Positions 808 through 38,502 of a stretch of 64,000 nucleotides of DNA are shown in pieces. Origin of the DNA: a virus; IMG/VR virus record IMGVR_UViG_3300032236_001232, positions 1 to 64,000 of that record; one strand, given 5' to 3'. Each line of letters begins with the position of its first letter. The stretch's first letter is position 1. The position numbers and the translations under genes are program-made. A model generated the notes under the pieces. It made no database searches. It had not been told where the DNA came from and saw only the letters and a program-made list of their open reading frames with translations.

Positions 808-972
808 ATGATGAACGCAACGGAGCAGACAATGACCGCACAAGAATTGATTGCCGTATTGGCTCAGTTGGATCCCAATAAAGAAATCCTGATCTATGAT
901 GGATCGTTTGACACCAATAAGCCAATCGACGAAGTTAAAATTGACCAGGACGGCGAAGTCGTTATTTCCTAA
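808..972 (+). CDS. hypothetical early protein (MTAQELIAVL-type)
   Basis: ATG 808 is 6 nt after the -10; in-frame ATG 832 has SD GGAG; the ORF-track start at 724 lies upstream of the promoter. Confidence 0.75.
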   Translation: MMNATEQTMTAQELIAVLAQLDPNKEILIYDGSFDTNKPIDEVKIDQDGEVVIS

Positions 973-981
973 GGAGCGGCT

Positions 982-1143
982 ATGAAAACAGCACACCTTA
1001 AACAAGAGTTAGTAAATCGAGTGATCTATCAAATACAGTGTGACCTGGAAGACAGGGACACTACTGCCATAGAAGAGCTGCTTTCGAAACTCGACGACGA
1101 ATACCTAATCGCTTACCTGCCTGAAGCAGATACCTTAGTCTAA
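982..1143 (+). CDS. hypothetical 53-aa protein (below ORF-track cutoff)
   Basis: TAAGGAG SD then MKTAHLKQELVNRVIYQIQCDLEDRDTTAIEELLSKLDDEYLIAYLPEADTLV*; fills the gap between neighbours exactly. Confidence 0.75.
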   Translation: MKTAHLKQELVNRVIYQIQCDLEDRDTTAIEELLSKLDDEYLIAYLPEADTLV

Positions 1144-1151
1144 GGACCGCT

Positions 1152-1334
1152 ATGGATAACTTTAAAGTCACTTGGATCTTCCGCAACGGACACCAGTGGA
1201 GCCAATTCTTTACCACTGCTGACGAGCGTACCAACTTCGTCAATCGCGTGGGCTTGGTCACTCATCCGGACATCGATCGCGTCTACATCACCGATCCTGA
1301 CGGTGTAGACATTGATCTCAAGCGTGTGGCATAA
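1152..1334 (+). CDS. hypothetical early protein
   Basis: SD TAAGGA, tight packing. Confidence 0.75.
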   Translation: MDNFKVTWIFRNGHQWSQFFTTADERTNFVNRVGLVTHPDIDRVYITDPDGVDIDLKRVA

Positions 1335-1374
1335 CAGCAACACGGTTGACAACACCTGAACAATCAGGTATACT
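1325..1374 (+). promoter_or_regulatory. sigma70-type early promoter with upstream palindrome
   Basis: TGTGGC-ataaca-GCAACA (1325-1342), TTGACA (1346-1351), 17 bp, TATACT (1369-1374). Confidence 0.9.
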
Positions 1375-1404
1375 ACACACATACTGAAACACAAAGGAAA
1401 TCAA

Positions 1405-1659
1405 ATGAAACATCTTAGTCCTCCAAGTCCAGAAGTTCGCGCTATCGTCAAGATGGCTGGTATCACTGCCATTGTCATTGTTGTGCCAATGCTGCTACGC
1501 TCGTTGACCCTGTGGTTTACCGGCGAAGAAATCGTATTTGGTATCTGTATGGCGCTGCTGGCTTTTACCTTCTACGGTATGTTCCAACTGTTCGTTGATC
1601 AGGAACGCCGCAAGGATGAACTCCAGGCTCGTCTCGACCGACTCAACGGTGCTGAATAA
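1405..1659 (+). CDS. hypothetical membrane protein (2 TM)
   Basis: SD AAGGA; two hydrophobic stretches. Confidence 0.75.
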   Translation: MKHLSPPSPEVRAIVKMAGITAIVIVVPMLLRSLTLWFTGEEIVFGICMALLAFTFYGMFQLFVDQERRKDELQARLDRLNGAE

Positions 1660-1685
1660 TCAACTAAACACCAAAGGAAATTAAA

Positions 1686-1985
1686 ATGAACAATTATGCA
1701 ATCGAACTGATCAATGTATCCACTCCAACCGGCGATGCAATTTTCCTAACCAATCGAACTGACCGTAGGACTGACAGCGTCCTTGCAAGAGAAGTGCCTG
1801 GTTATTTCAAAGACCCTAACTATACCTTTATCAATAAGGTTGTGTTGGCAGACAACCTTTCAAAGGATGCAGGCGAACTTGCGCTGAAGAAGTTCTATGC
1901 TGTGTATGAATCCCTGAATGTGCGCATTTTGAATGCACCAACAGCAAAAGGTCGTAAGGAATTCGAACTGTTCCAAACCGCTTAA
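1686..1985 (+). CDS. hypothetical protein
   Basis: SD AAGGA, ORF. Confidence 0.75.
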   Translation: MNNYAIELINVSTPTGDAIFLTNRTDRRTDSVLAREVPGYFKDPNYTFINKVVLADNLSKDAGELALKKFYAVYESLNVRILNAPTAKGRKEFELFQTA

Positions 1986-1997
1986 GAAAGGACCAGT

Positions 1998-2213
1998 ATG
2001 GAAATCCACGGACTGACCCAATTCCAACAGGACCTGGCTGACACGCTGTGGGACTGTGAAAACGAAGAAGAAATCCGGACAGTGATTGACTTCTACGGCG
2101 ACCCAGCCTACACAGTATACCAACTGATGGTTGCCGCACACTACGACGAACAAATCCAAAGCCACGAGGATATTGATTTGGCTAAGGAAGTGCTTGACAA
2201 CCTGTGTAAATAA
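1998..2213 (+). CDS. hypothetical acidic protein
   Basis: SD AAGGA, ORF. Confidence 0.75.
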   Translation: MEIHGLTQFQQDLADTLWDCENEEEIRTVIDFYGDPAYTVYQLMVAAHYDEQIQSHEDIDLAKEVLDNLCK

Positions 2214-2222
2214 TCGTATACT
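2194..2222 (+). promoter_or_regulatory. sigma70-type promoter (no palindrome)
   Basis: TTGACA (2194-2199), 17 bp, TATACT (2217-2222). Confidence 0.85.
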
Positions 2223-2251
2223 ACGCTACTACTTACTAGAGAATACACACA

Positions 2252-3115
2252 ATGGCAACAGCAAAATCCAGCAAAGGCTCCACAGTACTTGAGTTTGATG
2301 TCGAAGCTATCAAACGACGCGAACGCGAAGTGGCCAAAGAGTCAGACGAACAGATCCTGACACGACTGGCAGAACGCTTTGATATCCTTACCGAAATGAC
2401 TAAGGCAGTCAAGTCGGGCGATATCCGCGCAATGATCGTCAGTGGTCCTCCAGGCGTGGGCAAAAGCCATAATGTTGAAGCAGTACTACAGAAGGACGAC
2501 CTGTTCAATAAACTAGCCGAACGCAAACCCAAGTTTGAGATCGTTAAAGGCGCTATGTCAGCGATTGGTCTATACGGCAAACTGTTTGAATTCTCAGCGA
2601 AAGGCAATGTGGTCGTGTTTGACGATTGCGACAGTATCCTTATGGAGGACCTTAGCCTTAACATCCTTAAAGGCGCACTGGACTCAAGTCGTCGGCGATT
2701 CATCAGCTGGAATACTGACAGTCGCATCCTAAGAAGCGAAGGTATTCCTAATCGCTTTGAGTTCTGCGGTAGTGCCATCTTTATCACCAATATCAAGTTT
2801 GAACACATTAAGAGCAAGAAACTGCGCGATCACTTGGACGCACTAGAGTCACGCTGTCACTATATTGACCTGCAGATGGATACTAACAGGGAGAAAATCC
2901 TGCGTATCCGGCAGATCGTAAAGGGCGGCATGCTGGATGATAGAGACAACCTCACCGATATTGCCAAAGACGAGATCGTTGAGTTTATTACAGCAAACCA
3001 GGACCGACTGCGCGAACTCAGCTTGCGTATGGTGCTGAAGATTGCAGACCTGCGCGGCGGCTTTCCTGCCAACTGGCAAGCAATGGCTCGTACTACATGC
3101 ATGCGTCGAGCATAA
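2252..3115 (+). CDS. P-loop (AAA+-like) ATPase
   Basis: Walker A GPPGVGKS, Walker B VVVFDDCD, sensor-like FITN, Arg-finger-like ALESRC. Confidence 0.85.
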   Translation: MATAKSSKGSTVLEFDVEAIKRREREVAKESDEQILTRLAERFDILTEMTKAVKSGDIRAMIVSGPPGVGKSHNVEAVLQKDDLFNKLAERKPKFEIVKGAMSAIGLYGKLFEFSAKGNVVVFDDCDSILMEDLSLNILKGALDSSRRRFISWNTDSRILRSEGIPNRFEFCGSAIFITNIKFEHIKSKKLRDHLDALESRCHYIDLQMDTNREKILRIRQIVKGGMLDDRDNLTDIAKDEIVEFITANQDRLRELSLRMVLKIADLRGGFPANWQAMARTTCMRRA

Positions 3116-3130
3116 CAAGGAAACACTAAA

Positions 3131-3394
3131 ATGCTACAGATCAACATTGGCAGCAGGCAGGCAGCAAGGCTTGCTGCACTGTTGACTATGATATTCACCC
3201 TGTATGTATTGGGACTTGACCTAGCCGGTGACCACTTTTGGGCATTGGGATCTATACTGGCAATTACACTACTAATGGAGTTCCTAGCACACGGTGCGGG
3301 AATGGAAGCAGGAATAGAAATGATAGTTAACATGCCAGAATCCGCCCGCAACCAACTGATCCAACAGCTACGTGAAGAAGAGACCGAATCATGA
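3131..3394 (+). CDS. hypothetical membrane protein
   Basis: SD AAGGA; two hydrophobic segments. Confidence 0.7.
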   Translation: MLQINIGSRQAARLAALLTMIFTLYVLGLDLAGDHFWALGSILAITLLMEFLAHGAGMEAGIEMIVNMPESARNQLIQQLREEETES

Positions 3395-3618
3395 AATTTA
3401 CACAGTGCCAATGGATCGGAGCCGGTGAAGGCTGCAACCATAAATCATTAACTGATTCAAGCTATTGCGGCCACCACTACCCACGCATCTACGCTGTAGG
3501 CTCGGCCCTAAGCCGACGCAAGGCAGACCAACGATTGGCCGGCTACATCGTTAAGAGTGAACGAGATCCTACAGCAACGGATCCAGACACTGATCACCTA
3601 CCAGAGGTGTCAGCTTGA
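3391..3618 (+). CDS. small Cys/His protein, GcrA C-terminal-like
   Basis: CQWIG..GC......SYCGHH...Y pattern; ATGA overlap. Confidence 0.55.
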   Translation: MKFTQCQWIGAGEGCNHKSLTDSSYCGHHYPRIYAVGSALSRRKADQRLAGYIVKSERDPTATDPDTDHLPEVSA

Positions 3619-3818
3619 AATTGATCGTTGCAGTAATTACGCTAGTAGCCTGCGCTGTGCTGCTACTAGCGGCAGGGTGGATTATACCCTGGACTATTAA
3701 TGTGTTTGGAGCCACACTGTGGCCCACTCATGTCATTCCCTACACATGGGAAACAGCCGTAGCGGGTGCGGTTATTCTTGTTGTATTCACCCCACGCATT
3801 ACAATTAAAAAGCCTTAA
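3615..3818 (+). CDS. hypothetical membrane protein
   Basis: TTGA overlap, SD GAGGT, hydrophobic. Confidence 0.65.
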   Translation: MKLIVAVITLVACAVLLLAAGWIIPWTINVFGATLWPTHVIPYTWETAVAGAVILVVFTPRITIKKP

Positions 3819-4168
3819 TCACCACGCACATCGGTATTGAGCACAGGCTTAATCGCACGGCGCAATTCTACTTCACGCTTATGCGCCGCAGCCTTGCCAC
3901 GCACAATCTCATGCACACGGATCTCAATGTCTTCTTTGCTACGCAACTCGCGTAACGCAACACAAAGACTCCAGTCCTTGTTTTCTTTCTGCGCACGATA
4001 CCAATGCTTATTAGCACGGACTTGCACTGAACGCATTACAGTAGACTCAGTCTTTGCAGTAACACCAATGTAGTTGAGACCATTTACAATCAGCTCGTAA
4101 ATGATATGGTTACGATCGCTACGCTTTTTGCGAGCGGCTGTCTTAGTTGGCTGTGCTGTGGTATCCAT
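3815..4168 (-). CDS. minimal GIY-YIG family nuclease
   Basis: HIIY...NYIGVT...R..KH...REVEL...PVLN; ATG 4168 is 6 nt downstream of the -10 box. Confidence 0.7.
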   Translation of the reverse strand: MDTTAQPTKTAARKKRSDRNHIIYELIVNGLNYIGVTAKTESTVMRSVQVRANKHWYRAQKENKDWSLCVALRELRSKEDIEIRVHEIVRGKAAAHKREVELRRAIKPVLNTDVRGD

Positions 4169-4174
4169 GTGTGT

Positions 4175-4234
4175 ATAATACAGCGGGTGGCTCAGACTGT
4201 CAACAGGGTGCCGGTGTGTGGCGTAATGGCAACA
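4175..4234 (-). promoter_or_regulatory. sigma70-type promoter with palindrome
   Basis: minus-strand TTGACA (4203-4198), 17 bp, TATTAT (4180-4175); TGTGGC-gtaatg-GCAACA at 4217-4234. Confidence 0.85.
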
Positions 4235-4265
4235 GGGTGAGGGGGGTTGGGTATACATACACAAG

Positions 4266-4283
4266 TGTTGTAAAAAAACAACA
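4266..4283. promoter_or_regulatory. perfect palindrome TGTTGT-N6-ACAACA
   Basis: tgttgt-aaaaaa-acaaca, fifth copy of the early-promoter motif. Confidence 0.7.
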
Positions 4284-4430
4284 ACTTGCTTGCTAAAAAT
4301 TCACCCCTAAAAAAACTCGACTTAGATTAGAACCCCGGTGATCTAGATCTCCAACTCTGCTTTCTTTTGCGCAGCAATTTTTTTAGGCTAGCTATACCCC
4401 TCGGGCTGTATCACTCATACACATTGTATG

Positions 4431-4438
4431 TATAAATA
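4431..4438 (+). promoter_or_regulatory. T4-type late promoter
   Basis: TATAAATA upstream of SD AGGAG and ATG 4482. Confidence 0.7.
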
Positions 4439-4481
4439 TCTCCGGTTATACACATTTGTATATTATAGGAGAACTGTATAT

Positions 4482-4667
4482 ATGGTAGAGCGTCCCATAC
4501 GAACATTTGCACGTATTGTTTCATTCAGACTAATAGCATTGGCCATAACGGCCTTTTTTGTTGGGTGGAGTGTAGCTGTTACGCTGCAACTCATATTGCT
4601 GTGTGTGCATTACAGCATGGAGCGGCTGTGGTTAAAAACAACCTGGGGTCTACAAACCACACCTTAA
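4482..4667 (+). CDS. small membrane protein, DUF2061-like
   Basis: E...RT..RI.SFRLIA...HY..ERLW....WG pattern; SD AGGAG. Confidence 0.65.
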   Translation: MVERPIRTFARIVSFRLIALAITAFFVGWSVAVTLQLILLCVHYSMERLWLKTTWGLQTTP

Positions 4668-4723
4668 AAAATTTTGCGCAGTAATTTTTTAGTTACACTA
4701 TATAGAGGTCGGTATGTGTGTGA

Positions 4724-4828
4724 CTATTTCTTAGGCCACCATGGTTTATGCTGTTTACGTGCTGAATCAGGCACGGGTGTTTTGTCGTCGTTGTTGTCTG
4801 CGTTGGTTGTGTTATTGTTATTATTCAT
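4724..4828 (-). CDS. possible 34-aa peptide
   Basis: MNNNNNTTNADNNDDKTPVPDSARKQHKPWWPKK*, starts 8 nt after the upstream stop; low complexity. Confidence 0.35.
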   Translation of the reverse strand: MNNNNNTTNADNNDDKTPVPDSARKQHKPWWPKK

Positions 4829-4836
4829 AGTATATA

Positions 4837-5352
4837 TTATTGTTGGAATGAAGTTGTAGTTGTTCCTGCTGTTAGTGTCATTGGCCAGTTGAATGTACCT
4901 GCAGTGCCAGTGTTATATGTGCCGTCTGCTGGGTCCAGTATCCAGTATACAATAGAAGGGACTCCGCCAAATCCTGTAGTGCTGTAGTATATAGCAACTG
5001 GAGTAGTGCTGTATGTGCTGCCTGAGCTCCAATGTGCAGTCCATATTTCACCGCTGCCACCCGGAGTGCTGTCTGGTAAATTAGCAGCAACAAATGTTAA
5101 ATTAGCACTGGTCAGTCCTCTCATGGCCACTCCAGATTTAGTGGAATTGTTTATAGTGATACCAGTTCCGCTAACAGTAGCAGTAAAATCTTCCAGACTG
5201 CCCATTACTGGAGGGCCACTAGGATAATCAAATTCTGTAAAAGTTATAGTAATATCACCAGGAGCGGGGCCACCGCCACCACCTGCACCAGCGGTAACAC
5301 CGTGTCCTATAGTGATACCTGATCCGAAACGAATATTGTATGGTTGTGACAT
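4837..5352 (-). CDS. hypothetical beta-rich, probably virion-associated protein
   Basis: G/T/S-rich; SD AAGGA and TAAATA (5389-5384) upstream. Confidence 0.7.
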   Translation of the reverse strand: MSQPYNIRFGSGITIGHGVTAGAGGGGGPAPGDITITFTEFDYPSGPPVMGSLEDFTATVSGTGITINNSTKSGVAMRGLTSANLTFVAANLPDSTPGGSGEIWTAHWSSGSTYSTTPVAIYYSTTGFGGVPSIVYWILDPADGTYNTGTAGTFNWPMTLTAGTTTTSFQQ

Positions 5353-32638: not shown

Positions 32639-34870
32639 TTATTTTAATCCAGCTAGTTTCAACATGCTCTCCATTTCTCCACGCTCACGAGCCTGATCAA
32701 ATGAGTGATCCATATCGTCGGGAGCACTATCACCATGTCCTGGAGCATAATCATCAGCATATGGCTCTTCTGGTTCATACTCGCTTTGCATTTCCATGGC
32801 TGTTTTTAATATTTCAGATCTGGTAGGATTTTTGCCAGAAAACGCAGGTGTCATGCCAACTAAATGTTTCCAACTGCTACCAAATTGGCGACGCATATCT
32901 CCGGCATTGACCTTTTTGCTACGTAGAGCAGCAATCATTTCAGGTAGGTCATTTTGGAAATCAATATCTCTATCACTCATGGCACCTTCGTCCATTTCTG
33001 GTTCAGCTGGCATTCCACTGAGCTCGCGAATTCTAGCCAATCCATCTACATCATTTACCTTGCCGTGTTTTTTAGCCCAACGACGTGTGAGTTTTTCCAT
33101 AAACTGCTCGGCCATTTCACGAGCACGTTCGCCCATTTCCTCGCCGTATTTTTCAGAAATTTCTTTCTTAACTTCAGTGGCAATGTTCTCTGGATCTCTA
33201 AATGCGCCCACATCGGGATTGTCTTCATTAAAACGACTCTTAACGATTTCAGCAATCTTACGAACCATTCCCTCACGACCTTCTGCGGTCATTGTGCTGT
33301 TGGTCCACATACCTTCATCGTTCTCTGCTGACATGATGCCATGCACAGTAGCAGTACCACGACCTTCTGGTTGTGTCATTTCTGCTGTGGGCTGTTCAGT
33401 TCCTGGCGCAGGTGGTAATTCTGGTGCAGCAGGTGCCGGAGGTTGTTCAGTTCCAGCCGCTGCCACGGGTGCAGGCGACTCGCCTTCTGCATCTGTATAG
33501 TTAATGCCTAGTTTATCTAATAAGCTGGGTTGATTTTCTTTGGCCCAAGGAATGAATACATCTTCCATTGGATCTGCTTCGCTATCAATTCTTGCTTCAT
33601 CTTCAAAGTTTTGATTTAGTTCTTCGTCATCTAATCCTAATTCGCTAAAAAAGTTAATGGCTGTTTCACCATTAGGGCCTAATTGTAATGGTTCTGGTAA
33701 TTGTTCTAATGCCTGTTTAATTGCCGCAATTTGATCGTCAGTTAGTTCGCCACGTTCTGTAGCATCTGCCCAATCTTCAAATTCTTTGAATATGCTTTCT
33801 TTAACTTCTTTGTCATCTTCTTCATCTTCTGTATCATCTTCGCTGACTAGATCTTCTAATTCAATCTCATTAGTTTCTGCCATGATGCGATGTATTAGTG
33901 GAAAGTATTGTGTAAGTTCTTCTTGGAAATTTTTCTGTGTAAATTTGCTCTTGTATTCTTCCATAGTTACAGCATCTAGTTCTGTCATGCTGTCATCAAG
34001 TTGTTCTTGCTCGTTAAATTCTGCTAACCAATTTTCATAATATTGACGCTTGCCTATTGCAGCAATTTTCGCTTTTAGCTCTGTAAGTCGGCCTACGGCC
34101 CTGTCTGTTATTCCTGTGGCGTCATCATGCAGTGTTTGATGTTGAACTTTTCTTTGAAATTCGCCTAGTTGAGCAATTTCCTCACTCATTTTAATAATAG
34201 CACGGCCTGCGGGGTCATGTGGGATGCCACCGTGATCTACGTGTTGTGCCATGGCAAATGCGCCTGCTGGATGAATGAACGGATACTTAAAACGCTCACC
34301 ATCTCTATTTTGAATAAAAATTGCCTTGATGTTTTTACGTTGGCTACGACTACCAGCAAAATCTTCATCTACTGGTTTGTGATGTCTTACAATGACTTCA
34401 GTGCGTCCTTGGATAGCACGACTGGTTTTGCGCGAACTCTTATGGTTCCAACGGCTTTCATTTACGGTGTTCATAGGTTCTTCTTCCTTAGGGCCTTGGG
34501 TCGCAGCTAGATGCTGGAAATCATTTTTGTCAAGGTTGTTTTTGGCAATGTCTCTGGTATCAAATCTCAACAGTCTACGCATGGCAAAGAAACGCATTTC
34601 TTTTAAAAAATCATACCATGTTTGTTTAACAGGAGTATCTTGATTTTCTGTAATGCCTTGACTATAATAAACTTTGAGACTACCCAGATCATTTAGACTG
34701 ATACTAACACGACCTAGATTATTACCTTCGTGAATAAAATCAAAATCAAAGAAGCGAGCTTCGGCTGGATCGATGGTCACAGCGCCGGTTTCGTCGCCCA
34801 TTTCTAAATTACTAAAGCGACTACGCACTTTGTCAAAAACGTCTTGAGAAATTATCTGGATAGGTTTCAT
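32639..34870 (-). CDS. hypothetical acidic head-associated protein
   Basis: TAAATA 4 nt before ATG; LARIRELSGM and MLKLAGLK motifs. Confidence 0.8.
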   Translation of the reverse strand: MKPIQIISQDVFDKVRSRFSNLEMGDETGAVTIDPAEARFFDFDFIHEGNNLGRVSISLNDLGSLKVYYSQGITENQDTPVKQTWYDFLKEMRFFAMRRLLRFDTRDIAKNNLDKNDFQHLAATQGPKEEEPMNTVNESRWNHKSSRKTSRAIQGRTEVIVRHHKPVDEDFAGSRSQRKNIKAIFIQNRDGERFKYPFIHPAGAFAMAQHVDHGGIPHDPAGRAIIKMSEEIAQLGEFQRKVQHQTLHDDATGITDRAVGRLTELKAKIAAIGKRQYYENWLAEFNEQEQLDDSMTELDAVTMEEYKSKFTQKNFQEELTQYFPLIHRIMAETNEIELEDLVSEDDTEDEEDDKEVKESIFKEFEDWADATERGELTDDQIAAIKQALEQLPEPLQLGPNGETAINFFSELGLDDEELNQNFEDEARIDSEADPMEDVFIPWAKENQPSLLDKLGINYTDAEGESPAPVAAAGTEQPPAPAAPELPPAPGTEQPTAEMTQPEGRGTATVHGIMSAENDEGMWTNSTMTAEGREGMVRKIAEIVKSRFNEDNPDVGAFRDPENIATEVKKEISEKYGEEMGERAREMAEQFMEKLTRRWAKKHGKVNDVDGLARIRELSGMPAEPEMDEGAMSDRDIDFQNDLPEMIAALRSKKVNAGDMRRQFGSSWKHLVGMTPAFSGKNPTRSEILKTAMEMQSEYEPEEPYADDYAPGHGDSAPDDMDHSFDQARERGEMESMLKLAGLK

Positions 34871-34882
34871 CTTGTATTTATG

Positions 34883-35974
34883 TTAAAATGTATTTACATA
34901 GATGGGCATAGGCATAACCCATTCATCTTCGGATTCTTCTCTCATTTTATCATAGATACTGGGATCCCATTCCTGCAGAGTCATGGCCATTCTCACAGCC
35001 AATAACAAACTACTGACTAGATCATCATGGGTTCCAGATTTACCGGCAAAACTTATACCCTTAGCCACATAGGTTTTAAGTTCACTGATTAAGGGCTTGC
35101 TGTTTAATGTCATTCTATTGCTTTCAATTAAATGCTTTAATTTAGCACAGGCTGATATTTTACTAGTATGTGTAGTATTAAATCCTTTGCGGAATCTACG
35201 CACATGACCACGCTTAACTGGTTCACTGAGGAACAGTCCAGGGACACTTTCTTCGCCTATCTCTTCCATGGCTACCAGTGCTGCTTCACCTACGCTATTG
35301 TTTTCAATGCTGTAATATAAACTAGGAGTAACACCTTTCCTCGCACACTCGCTATTGATGTGATTACAAATATCTCTTAATATTCTCACCTGTCCCTGAA
35401 TAGGAGTAAGGTTATGATGCCACTCGGCTACTTGATCAAAACTGGGCAGTTCCATAATCTGTATAGCCGCAGGATCACCACCTGTTCCTAGACTGGGATC
35501 TAATGCCACTAGATAAGTGTGTTTAGGATTGATCTTTTTATACCAACGACATTGACCCATTTTCATTATGGGTTCCTTACCGTCTATACCGGCCAGTTTG
35601 AGACTGCTGATCAGGGTTTCATCAAAAACCAAAAATTCACAATTTTTAACAAGAATATCATTAGCATAAAATCTATGATTTTTTTCAACATTGAATAGAT
35701 CATATACTGGTTCTTTGTCAAACAATTTTACAGATACTACTTTTTCAATACCACTTGCAACTTGAATTCTTATACCGGGAAACAATTTTTGTGCTTCAAT
35801 TGGGCAGAATTTATTATCAAAAAAGTTGTGGTCAGGAGTGCAGGTTATTTCTCTGGTTTCTGTTTTTACCTTCAGTGTTTTTTGTAGGCCTTTATCCAAT
35901 AGCCCCTCAAAATTACTCCATCCGGTGTCGGTGAGGACTTGTAATCCTAATTTATTTTTTAGCAATTCTTCCAC
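34883..35974 (-). CDS. terL: terminase large subunit C-terminal half fused to split-intein C fragment (IntC, 111 aa)
   Basis: SD AAGGA + GTG 35974; intein blocks TCTPDH, VYDL.NV..NH.FYANDILVKN|C; then CEFL...LDPSLGTGGD...IENN...HDDLV nuclease domain. Confidence 0.9.
   Translation of the reverse strand: MEELLKNKLGLQVLTDTGWSNFEGLLDKGLQKTLKVKTETREITCTPDHNFFDNKFCPIEAQKLFPGIRIQVASGIEKVVSVKLFDKEPVYDLFNVEKNHRFYANDILVKNCEFLVFDETLISSLKLAGIDGKEPIMKMGQCRWYKKINPKHTYLVALDPSLGTGGDPAAIQIMELPSFDQVAEWHHNLTPIQGQVRILRDICNHINSECARKGVTPSLYYSIENNSVGEAALVAMEEIGEESVPGLFLSEPVKRGHVRRFRKGFNTTHTSKISACAKLKHLIESNRMTLNSKPLISELKTYVAKGISFAGKSGTHDDLVSSLLLAVRMAMTLQEWDPSIYDKMREESEDEWVMPMPIYVNTF
35642..35974 (-). other. split intein C-fragment coding region
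   Basis: ends Lys-Asn at 35642, followed by Cys+1 (35641-35639). Confidence 0.85.
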
Positions 35975-36635
35975 GACTAAATCCTTCAGGTTGATTACCT
36001 TCTTTAAATTGACGGGCCACCTCGCCATTGTTATACCACAGCATTCCTCGTTTTGCAGGCAATAATCGAGGCAACCTACCTTTAACATATCCATCTGGAC
36101 AATTTAGAGCATATGTTTCTACTACTCCGTTATTGAACCAGGTTTTTCCTTTGGCAGATCCTACTGTGCCTTTTTTAGCATCACTTATTTTTTTATTTCT
36201 TGCAGGATCTTTAGTATAATCATAATATCCGTCGGCAGATCTAATCTTAATTTGTTTTTCTCTTTCTTCTTCAGACCACCCTGTGCCTTTCTTTCGTCCG
36301 CCAATACCCGGTCTTTTTACACCCCTATTAGCGGCAGGTTTTCCATACATAGGATTTTTATCTCCTAAACGCATTTTAGATAGTTTCTCCTTGGCCTCTG
36401 TAGTATGTTTATAGCCACCGGGATTAGAATTTTTTAATATTTCATAAATTCTTTCTTCGTCTTTCATAATGCCAGATAAACTCAACCATGCTACTCTGTC
36501 CTGCCATCGGCCGTATTTTTCATATAGTTCTTTATGAGCAATGGCATGCTCCTCTATACTTAATTCAACCAAATTTGAAGGTTCATCGGAGCCTCCTGCG
36601 TGTCGAGGTATTATATGATGCTTATGTATTTTCAT
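35952..36635 (-). mobile_element. free-standing HNH homing endonuclease (NUMOD3-type repeats) between the terL halves
   Basis: HKHHIIPRHAGGSDEPSNLVELSIEEHAIAH; KHT.EAKEKLS; NPMYGK; two W.NNG repeats; own TAAATA (36646-36641). Confidence 0.88.
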
Positions 36636-36661
36636 AATATTATTTATCATTTCGTCAAATA

Positions 36662-37588
36662 TTATGAACTCATCAACAATTGTTTTAAATCTATAATCGA
36701 TATTTGTTCTATTTTTCCATTTGGCCATTTAACAGATATGATAGAATTTCCAGTAATACATTCGTGCTCTCGCCTAAATCGTTCTTCACCAATACGACTG
36801 CGTTCAACTTCGGCCCATTCTTCGTTTCGTTCAGGATGTTCGCTCCAATGTGCTTTGAATGGGAAGAATCCATTCTTACCTGTTTCTGTAGTATTTCCAT
36901 GTTCGTCAAATCGTTTATTGGCTTCGTGCCAGATCTGCGCAAACTGGTCTTCATCACTGTTAGGGGTTGATGTAATAATGGCCTTACCACCAGTGGCCAG
37001 TGTAGGACTAATGGAGGTCCAGAATTCACTGGCAATGTTAGGCGGCACGAACGCAAACTCGTCTGCGTATAGTAGTGATAAACTCATACCCCGGCCAGTT
37101 GTTTCTGTAGTAGTCTGTGCTACAATACGACTGCCGTTATCAAACTCAATACTTTGTTTATTATAACTGGTGCAACCTGCACGAATATGATCAGGACATA
37201 ATTCATAAGCATAACGAACACGCAACATAATCTCTTGAGCACCTGTGTGTTTGTGTGCTGCTACCAGTATGGTGCTGTTATCTACAAACATAGCATACCA
37301 CAGTAGATAACCGGCTGCTGTTGTAGTTTTACCTGTTTGTCTTGGTAGTAGATTTACATTAAATCTATGATCGTGATAACTGTCAATCAGTCTGCGTTGA
37401 TAATCAAATGCTTCGTATTTTAGTTTACCCTTCACCGGATGCTGAATGAAGAAAAAATTGTCTAAGAAGTAATGCGGCCCGTTGACAGGGTCCTTACACT
37501 TCGCCAGTTCTTCAATCATCTGTTCAGTGTATTGAATCTGACTGTGTGGTGTTTTAACCAGTTTATATTCGTTTTCTTTCTTGGCCAT
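36662..37588 (-). CDS. terL: terminase large subunit N-terminal (ATPase) half fused to split-intein N fragment (IntN, 32 aa)
   Basis: PRQTGKT, LLYADEFAF, ITSTPN, FRREHE|CITGNSIISVKWPNGKIEQISIIDLKQLLMSS*. Confidence 0.92.
   Translation of the reverse strand: MAKKENEYKLVKTPHSQIQYTEQMIEELAKCKDPVNGPHYFLDNFFFIQHPVKGKLKYEAFDYQRRLIDSYHDHRFNVNLLPRQTGKTTTAAGYLLWYAMFVDNSTILVAAHKHTGAQEIMLRVRYAYELCPDHIRAGCTSYNKQSIEFDNGSRIVAQTTTETTGRGMSLSLLYADEFAFVPPNIASEFWTSISPTLATGGKAIITSTPNSDEDQFAQIWHEANKRFDEHGNTTETGKNGFFPFKAHWSEHPERNEEWAEVERSRIGEERFRREHECITGNSIISVKWPNGKIEQISIIDLKQLLMSS
36665..36760 (-). other. split intein N-fragment coding region
   Basis: block A C1-ITGNS.I.V...G....I.I.DL then stop. Confidence 0.85.
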
Positions 37589-37602
37589 AATTTTATTTAC
37601 AT

Positions 37603-37628
37603 AAAAAAAGCCTCCGAAGAGGCTTTTT
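37603..37628 (-). terminator. intrinsic terminator with UUCG loop
   Basis: minus strand aaaaagcctc-TTCG-gaggcttttttt. Confidence 0.9.
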
Positions 37629-37647
37629 GGTTAAGTTGGGTTAACTG

Positions 37648-38502
37648 TTAACGAGTCTCAGTCACGAACTGTTTCCAGTCTGCCATTAACTGCTCTTCCA
37701 TAGTGGCAAATGCTTTAGGCTTATCGCCGTCCATACGATCACCTTGACCAGGTTGATTCTCACGATGTGCGAATTCATTAGCATCAAAGGGTGCAGGTGG
37801 TTCTGGATCTGCTGGACTATTATCATACATGCCTTCGTCGGCTTCTTCCTCGTCGTCCATTTCCTCATCGCCCATGTCTGGATTCATTTTGTCCATTACA
37901 CTGCGCATCATTTCGCCGTTGCTATGATCGTGATCAAGATCCATAGAAGGTTCGGCAGTTAAAATTGCTGGTTCATGTTCTATGCCTAGATGTGCTGGTT
38001 CAACTTGATGAACACCGGCCAGTTTCATAATGTCTGCTAGCATACCACTGAGTTCAGGACCACTGTTGGCTGTCATGGAAATACTGGCAGGAGTATGTGT
38101 TTGTCCACCCATGCCCGGCATAGGCATCATGCCACATTCTGCTAGGTCTAAACTTTCACTTACGGCAGTTTGATCCATTGTATCGGCAGCAGCAGTCGGG
38201 GCCACAGCAGCAGGGGCAGCACTGGTTTTAAGATAGTTAGGATTCTTTTTTTCAAATTCTTCTGGACTTAGCACAGGAACAGGACGACCGGTAGCATCAA
38301 CCGGAGCACCTTTACCGTTGGCATCTCTCCACTGTTGGTCAGCAACTCGTTTGTTTAATTGCTGCTCATATGGTGTGCCACGATATTTCTGTTGCATAGC
38401 CTGCAATTGTTGTAAGGCAGGACTAGCCTGGCCTTCGCGAATTATATTGGGATTGCCGGCGTCTAATTCGGCCAATCTTTTCATTAGATCGATCATCTGC
38501 AT
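37648..38502 (-). CDS. hypothetical acidic head-associated protein
   Basis: MIDLMKRLAELD N-term, IMKLAGV motif; SD AAGGA. Confidence 0.75.
   Translation of the reverse strand: MQMIDLMKRLAELDAGNPNIIREGQASPALQQLQAMQQKYRGTPYEQQLNKRVADQQWRDANGKGAPVDATGRPVPVLSPEEFEKKNPNYLKTSAAPAAVAPTAAADTMDQTAVSESLDLAECGMMPMPGMGGQTHTPASISMTANSGPELSGMLADIMKLAGVHQVEPAHLGIEHEPAILTAEPSMDLDHDHSNGEMMRSVMDKMNPDMGDEEMDDEEEADEGMYDNSPADPEPPAPFDANEFAHRENQPGQGDRMDGDKPKAFATMEEQLMADWKQFVTETR

Follow-up and report, generated by a model that had tools for sequence, protein, structure and literature searches.

Fractured genes were defined from ocean metagenomes by Dassa, London, Stoddard, Schueler-Furman and Pietrokovski in 2009, and a gp17-like terminase locus from Lake Gatun was included among them (PMC2677866). 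In that study the arrangement was found mainly in phage, only GIY-YIG and Vsr-like endonucleases were seen, and HNH endonucleases were predicted to be able to act in the same way; the terminase intein was the only split intein that was broken outside the usual region of endonuclease insertion (PMC2677866). AceL-TerL (25/104 amino acids in the N- and C-terminal parts), GOS-TerL (37/115), and Cat-TerL (30/104) are characterised trans-splicing inteins of the large terminase subunit, TerL (PMC11766414). Here, the terL locus of the viral record IMGVR_UViG_3300032236_001232 is described. The window analysed is the stretch of 64,000 nucleotides (nt) at positions 1-64,000 of this record, which totals 164 kb. 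[quoted passage not shown]

The first-pass annotation of this DNA had placed the locus among such known systems, and this holds, since the fractured-terminase layout is of a kind that has been known since 2009 and is common in phage metagenomes. As in the fractured genes of Dassa et al., the host gene consists of two neighbouring genes in one orientation, which jointly make up the uninterrupted homologue, and the endonuclease gene overlaps the downstream half and supplies its start. Unlike those genes, the window has an HNH/NUMOD3 endonuclease instead of a GIY-YIG or Vsr-like one, the gap between the stop codon of the N-terminal intein fragment (IntN) and the endonuclease start is 11-26 nt, depending on the start chosen, and not 27-51 nt, and the locus belongs to a PA5oct-like jumbo phage.

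With the AceL, GOS, and Cat inteins the window intein shares the TerL host, the class-1 type, the Cys at position +1, a C-extein that begins with CE, a short IntN (32 residues, against 25-37), and a long C-terminal fragment, IntC (111 residues, against 104-115). It differs from them in the residue before the terminal Asn, which is Lys in the window and Ser in relatives, whereas theirs is His. Cat (PDB code: 6DSL), a consensus of AceL-TerL and GOS-TerL, served as the proxy for both in the sequence comparison. The relation is distant (17.8 bits, E = 0.027, for the single IntC sequence against CatC, and 35.8 bits for a profile), and with Cat as proxy a sister subfamily of AceL/GOS/Cat-TerL is the best description of the window intein.

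A fractured terL is also carried by a cultured phage, Yersinia phage MHG19 (L003; Tevenvirinae; OQ331036, record positions 134342-137304), for which the GenBank annotation lists only a hypothetical protein besides two genes named 'terminase large subunit'. As in the window, TerL-N with an IntN (37 residues) is followed by a middle endonuclease gene and by an IntC joined to TerL-C, in the same linker; the two IntC are 32% identical. In MHG19, however, a GIY-YIG-like gene occupies the middle (SegE_GIY-YIG, 0.0017), the last two residues of the intein are His-Asn, and the insertion lies one residue upstream of that in the window (QEH/CAEF against REHE/CEF in an ungapped alignment). The intein-free T4-like phage JS10 also has Cys at the MHG19 insertion point. 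In a related phage group, PolB of the PA5oct-like phage MIJ3 has an HNH gene between split-intein halves (PMC6892783). This is again an essential gene with the HNH gene between the halves, but the host gene is PolB and its intein has the canonical split position, past blocks B and N4. What is new at the present locus, as judged from the sequence comparisons, is the clear signature of transfer, the swap of nuclease heads, and the use of one site by two intein lineages.

The fractured terL gene and its split intein

The three genes, terL-N, the endonuclease gene, and terL-C, are adjacent in that order, all on the minus strand. The terL-N gene (36662-37588; 308 residues) encodes the N-extein with the ATPase domain (36761-37588; 276 residues, ending in FRREHE), followed by the 32-residue IntN (36665-36760; residues 277-308 of the protein) and a TAA stop codon at 36664-36662. 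The endonuclease gene follows in a frame different from that of terL-N, with its stop side at 35952. The terL-C gene (34883-35974; stop codon at 34885-34883) encodes the 111-residue IntC (35642-35974) and then the C-extein with the nuclease domain (34883-35641), which begins with Cys+1 (codon at 35641) and reads CEFLVFDETLI. IntN, the endonuclease gene, and IntC together form an insert of 1119 base pairs (35642-36760), referred to below as the cassette. All the coordinates and peptides quoted in the first-pass annotation agree with the open reading frames and translations, including the 32-residue IntN that ends TerL-N after FRREHE.

Profile searches identify the two exteins as the halves of one T4-type terminase. 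TerL-N matches Terminase_6N (2.3e-16) and PHROG 36964 (6.5e-66), and is a T4-type terminase ATPase domain; the C-extein matches Terminase_6C and positions 626-861 of PHROG 36964. In the latter profile the N half reaches position 628 and the C half begins at position 626. The N-extein is 61% identical to TerL of Pseudomonas phage PA5oct, with the match ending at record base 129691, and the C-extein is 50.6% identical to the same protein, with the match beginning at record base 129692. Therefore, the exteins abut exactly on the PA5oct gene, which encodes one uninterrupted protein of 531 residues with the junction RFRREHE-VEFISFEETLI. Removal of the intein would give REHE-CEF in the window TerL, and most of the nearest loci likewise read CEF, so that the proposal that excision restores the normal TerL linker is borne out. 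The order of the genes near terL also agrees with that of PA5oct. On gene order and TerL similarity, the phage is a jumbo phage of the PA5oct-like kind whose TerL is of T4 type, and not a T4-like phage proper.

The nucleophiles and block motifs of a class-1 intein are present. Cys1 (36760) opens IntN in a block A of the type C-I-x-G-N/D-S, IntC contains block B (T-P-D-H), block F (V-Y-D-L...N-H-R-F, with its Asp and His), and block G (I-L-V-K-N, with the terminal Asn), and Cys+1 (35641) follows. Cys1 is invariant in all ten aligned N-fragments, and T46, H49, D92, and N111 are invariant across the family alignments. An alignment with known inteins had been proposed at the outset, and IntC does match them. 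As a single sequence searched against PDB inteins it finds VidaL (4e-8), Spl DnaX (7e-8), and gp41-1 (4e-7), and a profile of eight family members finds Spl DnaX (8e-10), VidaL (4e-9), gp41-1 (3e-8), and CatC (6DSL chain B; 7.5e-8), the CatC score not being above those of the other three. Since the profile alignment with CatC opens at CatC residue 13, a few residues into both chains, the window intein and CatC share the structural position of the break. A match of IntC to Vibrio phage 2.275.O was set aside as alignment spill-over, as the TerL of that phage is uninterrupted.

The HINT fold was modelled on one natural contiguous chain, P0035 (65% IntC identity), as a stand-in for the two chains of the window. 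The AlphaFold2 model has a mean predicted local distance difference test score (pLDDT) of 74, with 78-96 in the IntC part and a confident nuclease domain, which adjoins the HINT-like domain and resembles T4 gp17. The HINT-like domain superposes on VidaL, gp41-1, and Cat with template modelling scores of 0.67-0.71 on the target, and the loop at which the window intein is broken has a pLDDT below 50.

The middle gene matches NUMOD3 (1.9e-9) and HNH in Pfam, the latter at 3e-4 and 21.2 bits, just under the cut-off of 21.4 bits; with PHROG 655 (homing endonuclease) the match reaches 8.5e-18. These matches support the HNH gene of the first-pass annotation, whereas its first ATG (36728; 258 residues) was rejected as the start codon, because it lies inside the IntN coding region, relatives have stop codons there or lack the ATG, and database gene calls are of 232 or 227 residues. 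There are 896 relatives of the endonuclease in the database. The most likely start is ATG 36635 (gene at 35952-36635; 227 residues) or ATG 36650 (232 residues), both past the terL-N stop codon; one relative has Ile at the position corresponding to 36650.

The 3' end of the endonuclease gene carries the start of terL-C. The reading frame of terL-C is open from 36094, and its best start is the GTG at 35974, preceded by a Shine-Dalgarno (SD) sequence, GAAGGA (35987-35982), with a spacer of 7 nt (35972-35987 in all). The two genes overlap by 23 nt, and the SD sequence lies inside the overlap. Both SD and GTG are conserved in four related contigs (L006-L009); in three of these (L006-L008) in-frame stop codons just upstream make the GTG the first usable start. 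The GTG start that had been assigned to a 111-residue IntC is upheld by these features. In three others (L010-L012), terL-C starts at an ATG a few codons upstream. As the SD sequence of terL-C lies within the endonuclease gene, and terL-C is without the TAAATA box described below, its translation presumably relies on the endonuclease transcript or on read-through of terL-N.

The motif TAAATA-N5-ATG is present both at the endonuclease start (36633-36646) and at the terL-N start (37586-37599). It occurs nine times in the window (5504, 9525, 13582, 36633, 37586, 40642, 41509, 47108, and 60876) where 1.35 would be expected, a count reached by none of 100 shuffled sequences, and seven of the nine matches open reading frames of at least 70 codons. 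The box is also kept in both the HNH-type and the GIY-YIG-type sister cassettes. The promoter that the annotation had given to the endonuclease gene is thus supported as an enriched and conserved motif, while as a promoter it is putative: TAAATA-N5-ATG is a probable phage promoter that would give a very short leader or none. Nothing could be learned from a generic sigma-70 scan, which gave 11 sites where 9.3 would be expected. A hairpin with a U-run (37600-37628, minus strand; -14.4 kcal/mol, z = -3.75) lies immediately before the terL-N box and is placed as the terminator of the gene upstream of terL-N; it was missed by a simple terminator scan. A chance match to the Rfam Phe-leader (E = 0.52) falls on the same hairpin.

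Conservation, probable transfer, and variants of the cassette

The order terL-N with IntN, endonuclease gene, and IntC with terL-C is kept in all seven IMG/VR contigs that span the junction, at IntC identities from 95% down to 60%, and in each of them IntN has 31-32 residues and is followed by a stop codon. An eighth related contig (56% IntC identity) ends inside IntC. In a large protein collection, 147 protein clusters match IntC, some of them on contigs of at least 350 kb, and related N-halves with IntN tails of 30-35 residues are also present. A contig of 352,190 base pairs carries the same protein as the window. Among the 120 IntC matches listed, most are C-halves of 352-371 residues, 91 have an IntC of exactly 111 residues, and 116 have a C-extein that begins with CEF. 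In these 116 C-halves the residue before the terminal Asn is Lys in 75, Ser in 41, and His in none. The penultimate Lys had been proposed as a peculiarity of the window allele; by these counts, Lys or Ser at this position is a trait of the whole family.

The ratio of nonsynonymous to synonymous substitution rates (dN/dS) was calculated against the two contigs with the closest cassettes (L006 and L007); it amounts to 0.08-0.12 in IntN and IntC, and to 0.09-0.10 in the HNH gene. At the codon level, purifying selection is thus shown to act on all three parts of the cassette. Ungapped values against L010 and L011 were invalid owing to insertions and deletions and were ignored.

In the same two contigs, the cassette is far more similar to that of the window than are the flanks. 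DNA identity to L007 is 92.9% in the cassette, against 70.8% in the N-extein and 70.7% in the C-extein, and identity to L006 is 91.7%, against 77.1% and 74.0%. Synonymous divergence is 0.2-0.4 within the cassette and saturated in the exteins. In bins of 60 nt, identity jumps at 35641 for both contigs, and at the N-terminal boundary the jump for L007 is at 36760 and that for L006 comes about 60 nt earlier.

The terL locus was also surveyed in the 80 nearest loci, in which the N-extein is 79-97% identical. A complete uninterrupted terL is present in 72, with HE or HD followed by CEF in 70 and HE followed by VEF in two; four more are cut by a contig end, yet read on into CEF, and terL is split in the remaining four. 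Because the nearest terL genes are mostly uninterrupted and have CEF, the Cys at +1 is a residue native to TerL in this clade, and the insert is a sporadic gain. The three closest relatives (L014-L016; 97% identity in N-extein amino acids and about 90% in flanking DNA) have a precise empty site, in which GAGCATGAA is followed directly by TGTGAATTT. Since the closest relatives have a clean empty site and the identity of the cassette exceeds that of its flanks, it seems that the cassette has recently passed as a single unit between diverged genomes.

Sister cassettes have a different nuclease head. In L010-L012 (3172-4017), the head of the endonuclease matches LEM-3_GIY-YIG at 1.7e-4, below the Pfam cut-off, and is described here as GIY-YIG-like. 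About 150 C-terminal residues, from NUMOD3 to the end, are common to this endonuclease and that of the window (35955-36650), in an alignment of 208 residues with 49% identity. Both junction sequences of the cassettes are also common to them, while the catalytic heads are unrelated. Therefore, a nuclease domain appears to have been swapped on a common DNA-binding tail. At the same HE/CEF site and in the same phage clade, L046 (4486-7519) and L048 carry a different split intein. It has an IntN of 29 residues that opens with Cys-Cys, an endonuclease-like reading frame of 334 residues (DUF7487), and an IntC that ends in Ser-Asn. The IntC of L046 is closer to Cat than is that of the window (52 bits, 7.6e-13), and in its CatC alignment the chain runs on into H-A-C-E.

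Other forms of terL were observed among the relatives. In P0035 (residues 154-299) and P0082, a contiguous version of the window intein with 146 residues occupies the same site in terL and lacks an endonuclease; it either is ancestral or has arisen by loss of the endonuclease. In L010 (IMGVR_UViG_3300044568_002742; 900-5100), terL is divided into three. The Walker B site (LLY/C at one end and N/CDEFAF at the other) holds a second split intein, which has a reading frame of 307 residues and of no known family between its halves and comes on top of the split intein at HE/CEF or YG/CEF. Invasion of the Walker B type likewise concerns the proteins P0241, P0244, P0247, P0250, and P0082, and middle pieces of 244-246 residues, with an IntC first and the next IntN last, recur in the protein collection. 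In Salicola phage SCTP-2 (L002; MF360958, gene 224), the annotated TerL of 694 residues opens with an IntC-like segment ending in SQ before CDEFAF, at the Walker B site, and holds another contiguous intein. It looks as if terL of this phage is fractured upstream and has been invaded several times.

Alternative explanations

Several points weigh against a fractured terL that is rejoined by a split intein. The 32-residue IntN alone found no match in the PDB search. In the P0035 model the IntN part is only moderate, with a pLDDT of 57-73, and superpositions of the whole intein give a large root-mean-square deviation. The penultimate His (block G:6), which helps Asn cyclisation in many inteins, is Lys in the window intein. 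The Npu and Ssp DnaE inteins are likewise without the penultimate His. Splicing without it is established, as in references 74 and 87 of the list in PMC4031507, and on this precedent the Lys is not expected to block splicing. Alternatively, the two TerL halves could function without a new peptide bond, in a non-covalent complex that is maintained either by the intein fragments or by their own domains, in the manner of the HNH-fractured NrdA of phage Aeh1. Working fractured phage genes that are free of inteins are documented, nrdA/mobE of Aeh1 being a case cited in PMC2677866. However, Cys1, the Thr and His of block B, the Asp and His of block F, the terminal Asn, and Cys+1 are all kept in relatives down to 50-60% identity, although a mere docking module would need none of them, and close homologues of this kind, namely AceL, GOS, and Cat TerL, do trans-splice (PMC11766414). 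The non-covalent complex is therefore considered improbable.

The record is rated 46% complete, so that a second, intact terL is possible outside the 164 kb, and the split gene would then be a decaying copy while packaging is served by the gene in the unseen part of the genome. Against this, purifying selection is strong on both exteins and on the intein, at least 147 protein clusters retain the layout, some of them from the long contigs noted above, and terL lies in the PA5oct gene order; no second terL was found in the 164-kb record, which has a single Terminase_6N match. A decaying copy thus appears very improbable. It would be more surprising still if the split were an artefact of assembly or sequencing, a contiguous intein-endonuclease read by frameshifting, or an RNA intron. 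The window does come from a single metagenomic assembly, but its stops, frames, and starts are common to at least eight independent contigs from different samples, the endonuclease gene has a promoter-like box and a start of its own, and sister cassettes exchange the nuclease head while keeping the junctions. Splicing of the insert at the RNA level was rejected, because no Rfam intron family matches the region: no group I or group II intron was found in the scan of 34500-38000, which gave only the chance Phe-leader match, and the boundaries of the insert fall on the catalytic residues of the intein. Overall, the split intein with trans-splicing is the explanation that is retained here.

Proposed mechanism and significance

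A possible history and mode of action of the locus can be described as follows. terL carries a selfish cassette in the linker that joins its ATPase domain to its nuclease domain (REHE/CEF), and this cassette is a class-1 mini-intein that is broken about 32 residues from its N-terminal end by an HNH/NUMOD3 gene. Three proteins would be made: the ATPase domain with IntN, the endonuclease, and IntC with the nuclease domain. IntN would dock on IntC to complete the HINT fold, and Cys1, Cys+1, and the terminal Asn would then carry out trans-splicing to yield a full-length TerL with the native HE-CEF junction. In co-infections the endonuclease would cut intein-free terL alleles, and repair would copy the whole cassette into them (homing). 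The cassette brings with it the stop codon of terL-N, a TAAATA-N5-ATG box at the start of its own gene, and, for terL-C, the SD sequence and GTG. Both trans-splicing and homing may be regarded as well-founded inferences; for homing the indications are indirect, namely a cassette more alike between phages than its flanks, its presence or absence among relatives with a clean empty site, and an HNH dN/dS of about 0.1.

A more tentative proposal, for which the odds seem somewhat unfavourable, is that the cassette is a modular and currently active homing unit that has been made hard to lose. Its 5' junction module would carry the terL-N stop codon with the TAAATA-N5-ATG, and its 3' end the DNA-binding tail with the SD sequence and start of terL-C; HNH and GIY-YIG-like heads would be exchanged between the two. 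The translation of terL-C would be tied to the endonuclease gene, and at least two unrelated split-intein lineages would compete for the HE/CEF site in one clade.

For protein engineering, the family provides IntN of 30-35 residues, Cys1/Cys+1 chemistry, Lys or Ser before the terminal Asn, and at least 116 natural variants of the C-half. It adds to the sources of atypically split inteins that may be orthogonal, in a niche that is already filled by AceL, GOS, Cat, VidaL, and PolB16. For phage biology, DNA packaging in this phage probably depends on trans-splicing, so that the locus would be a natural example of an essential packaging motor that is probably assembled by protein trans-splicing. 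It also offers unusually clear comparative evidence of a unit of intein and endonuclease that appears to move between diverged genomes and to swap its nuclease heads.

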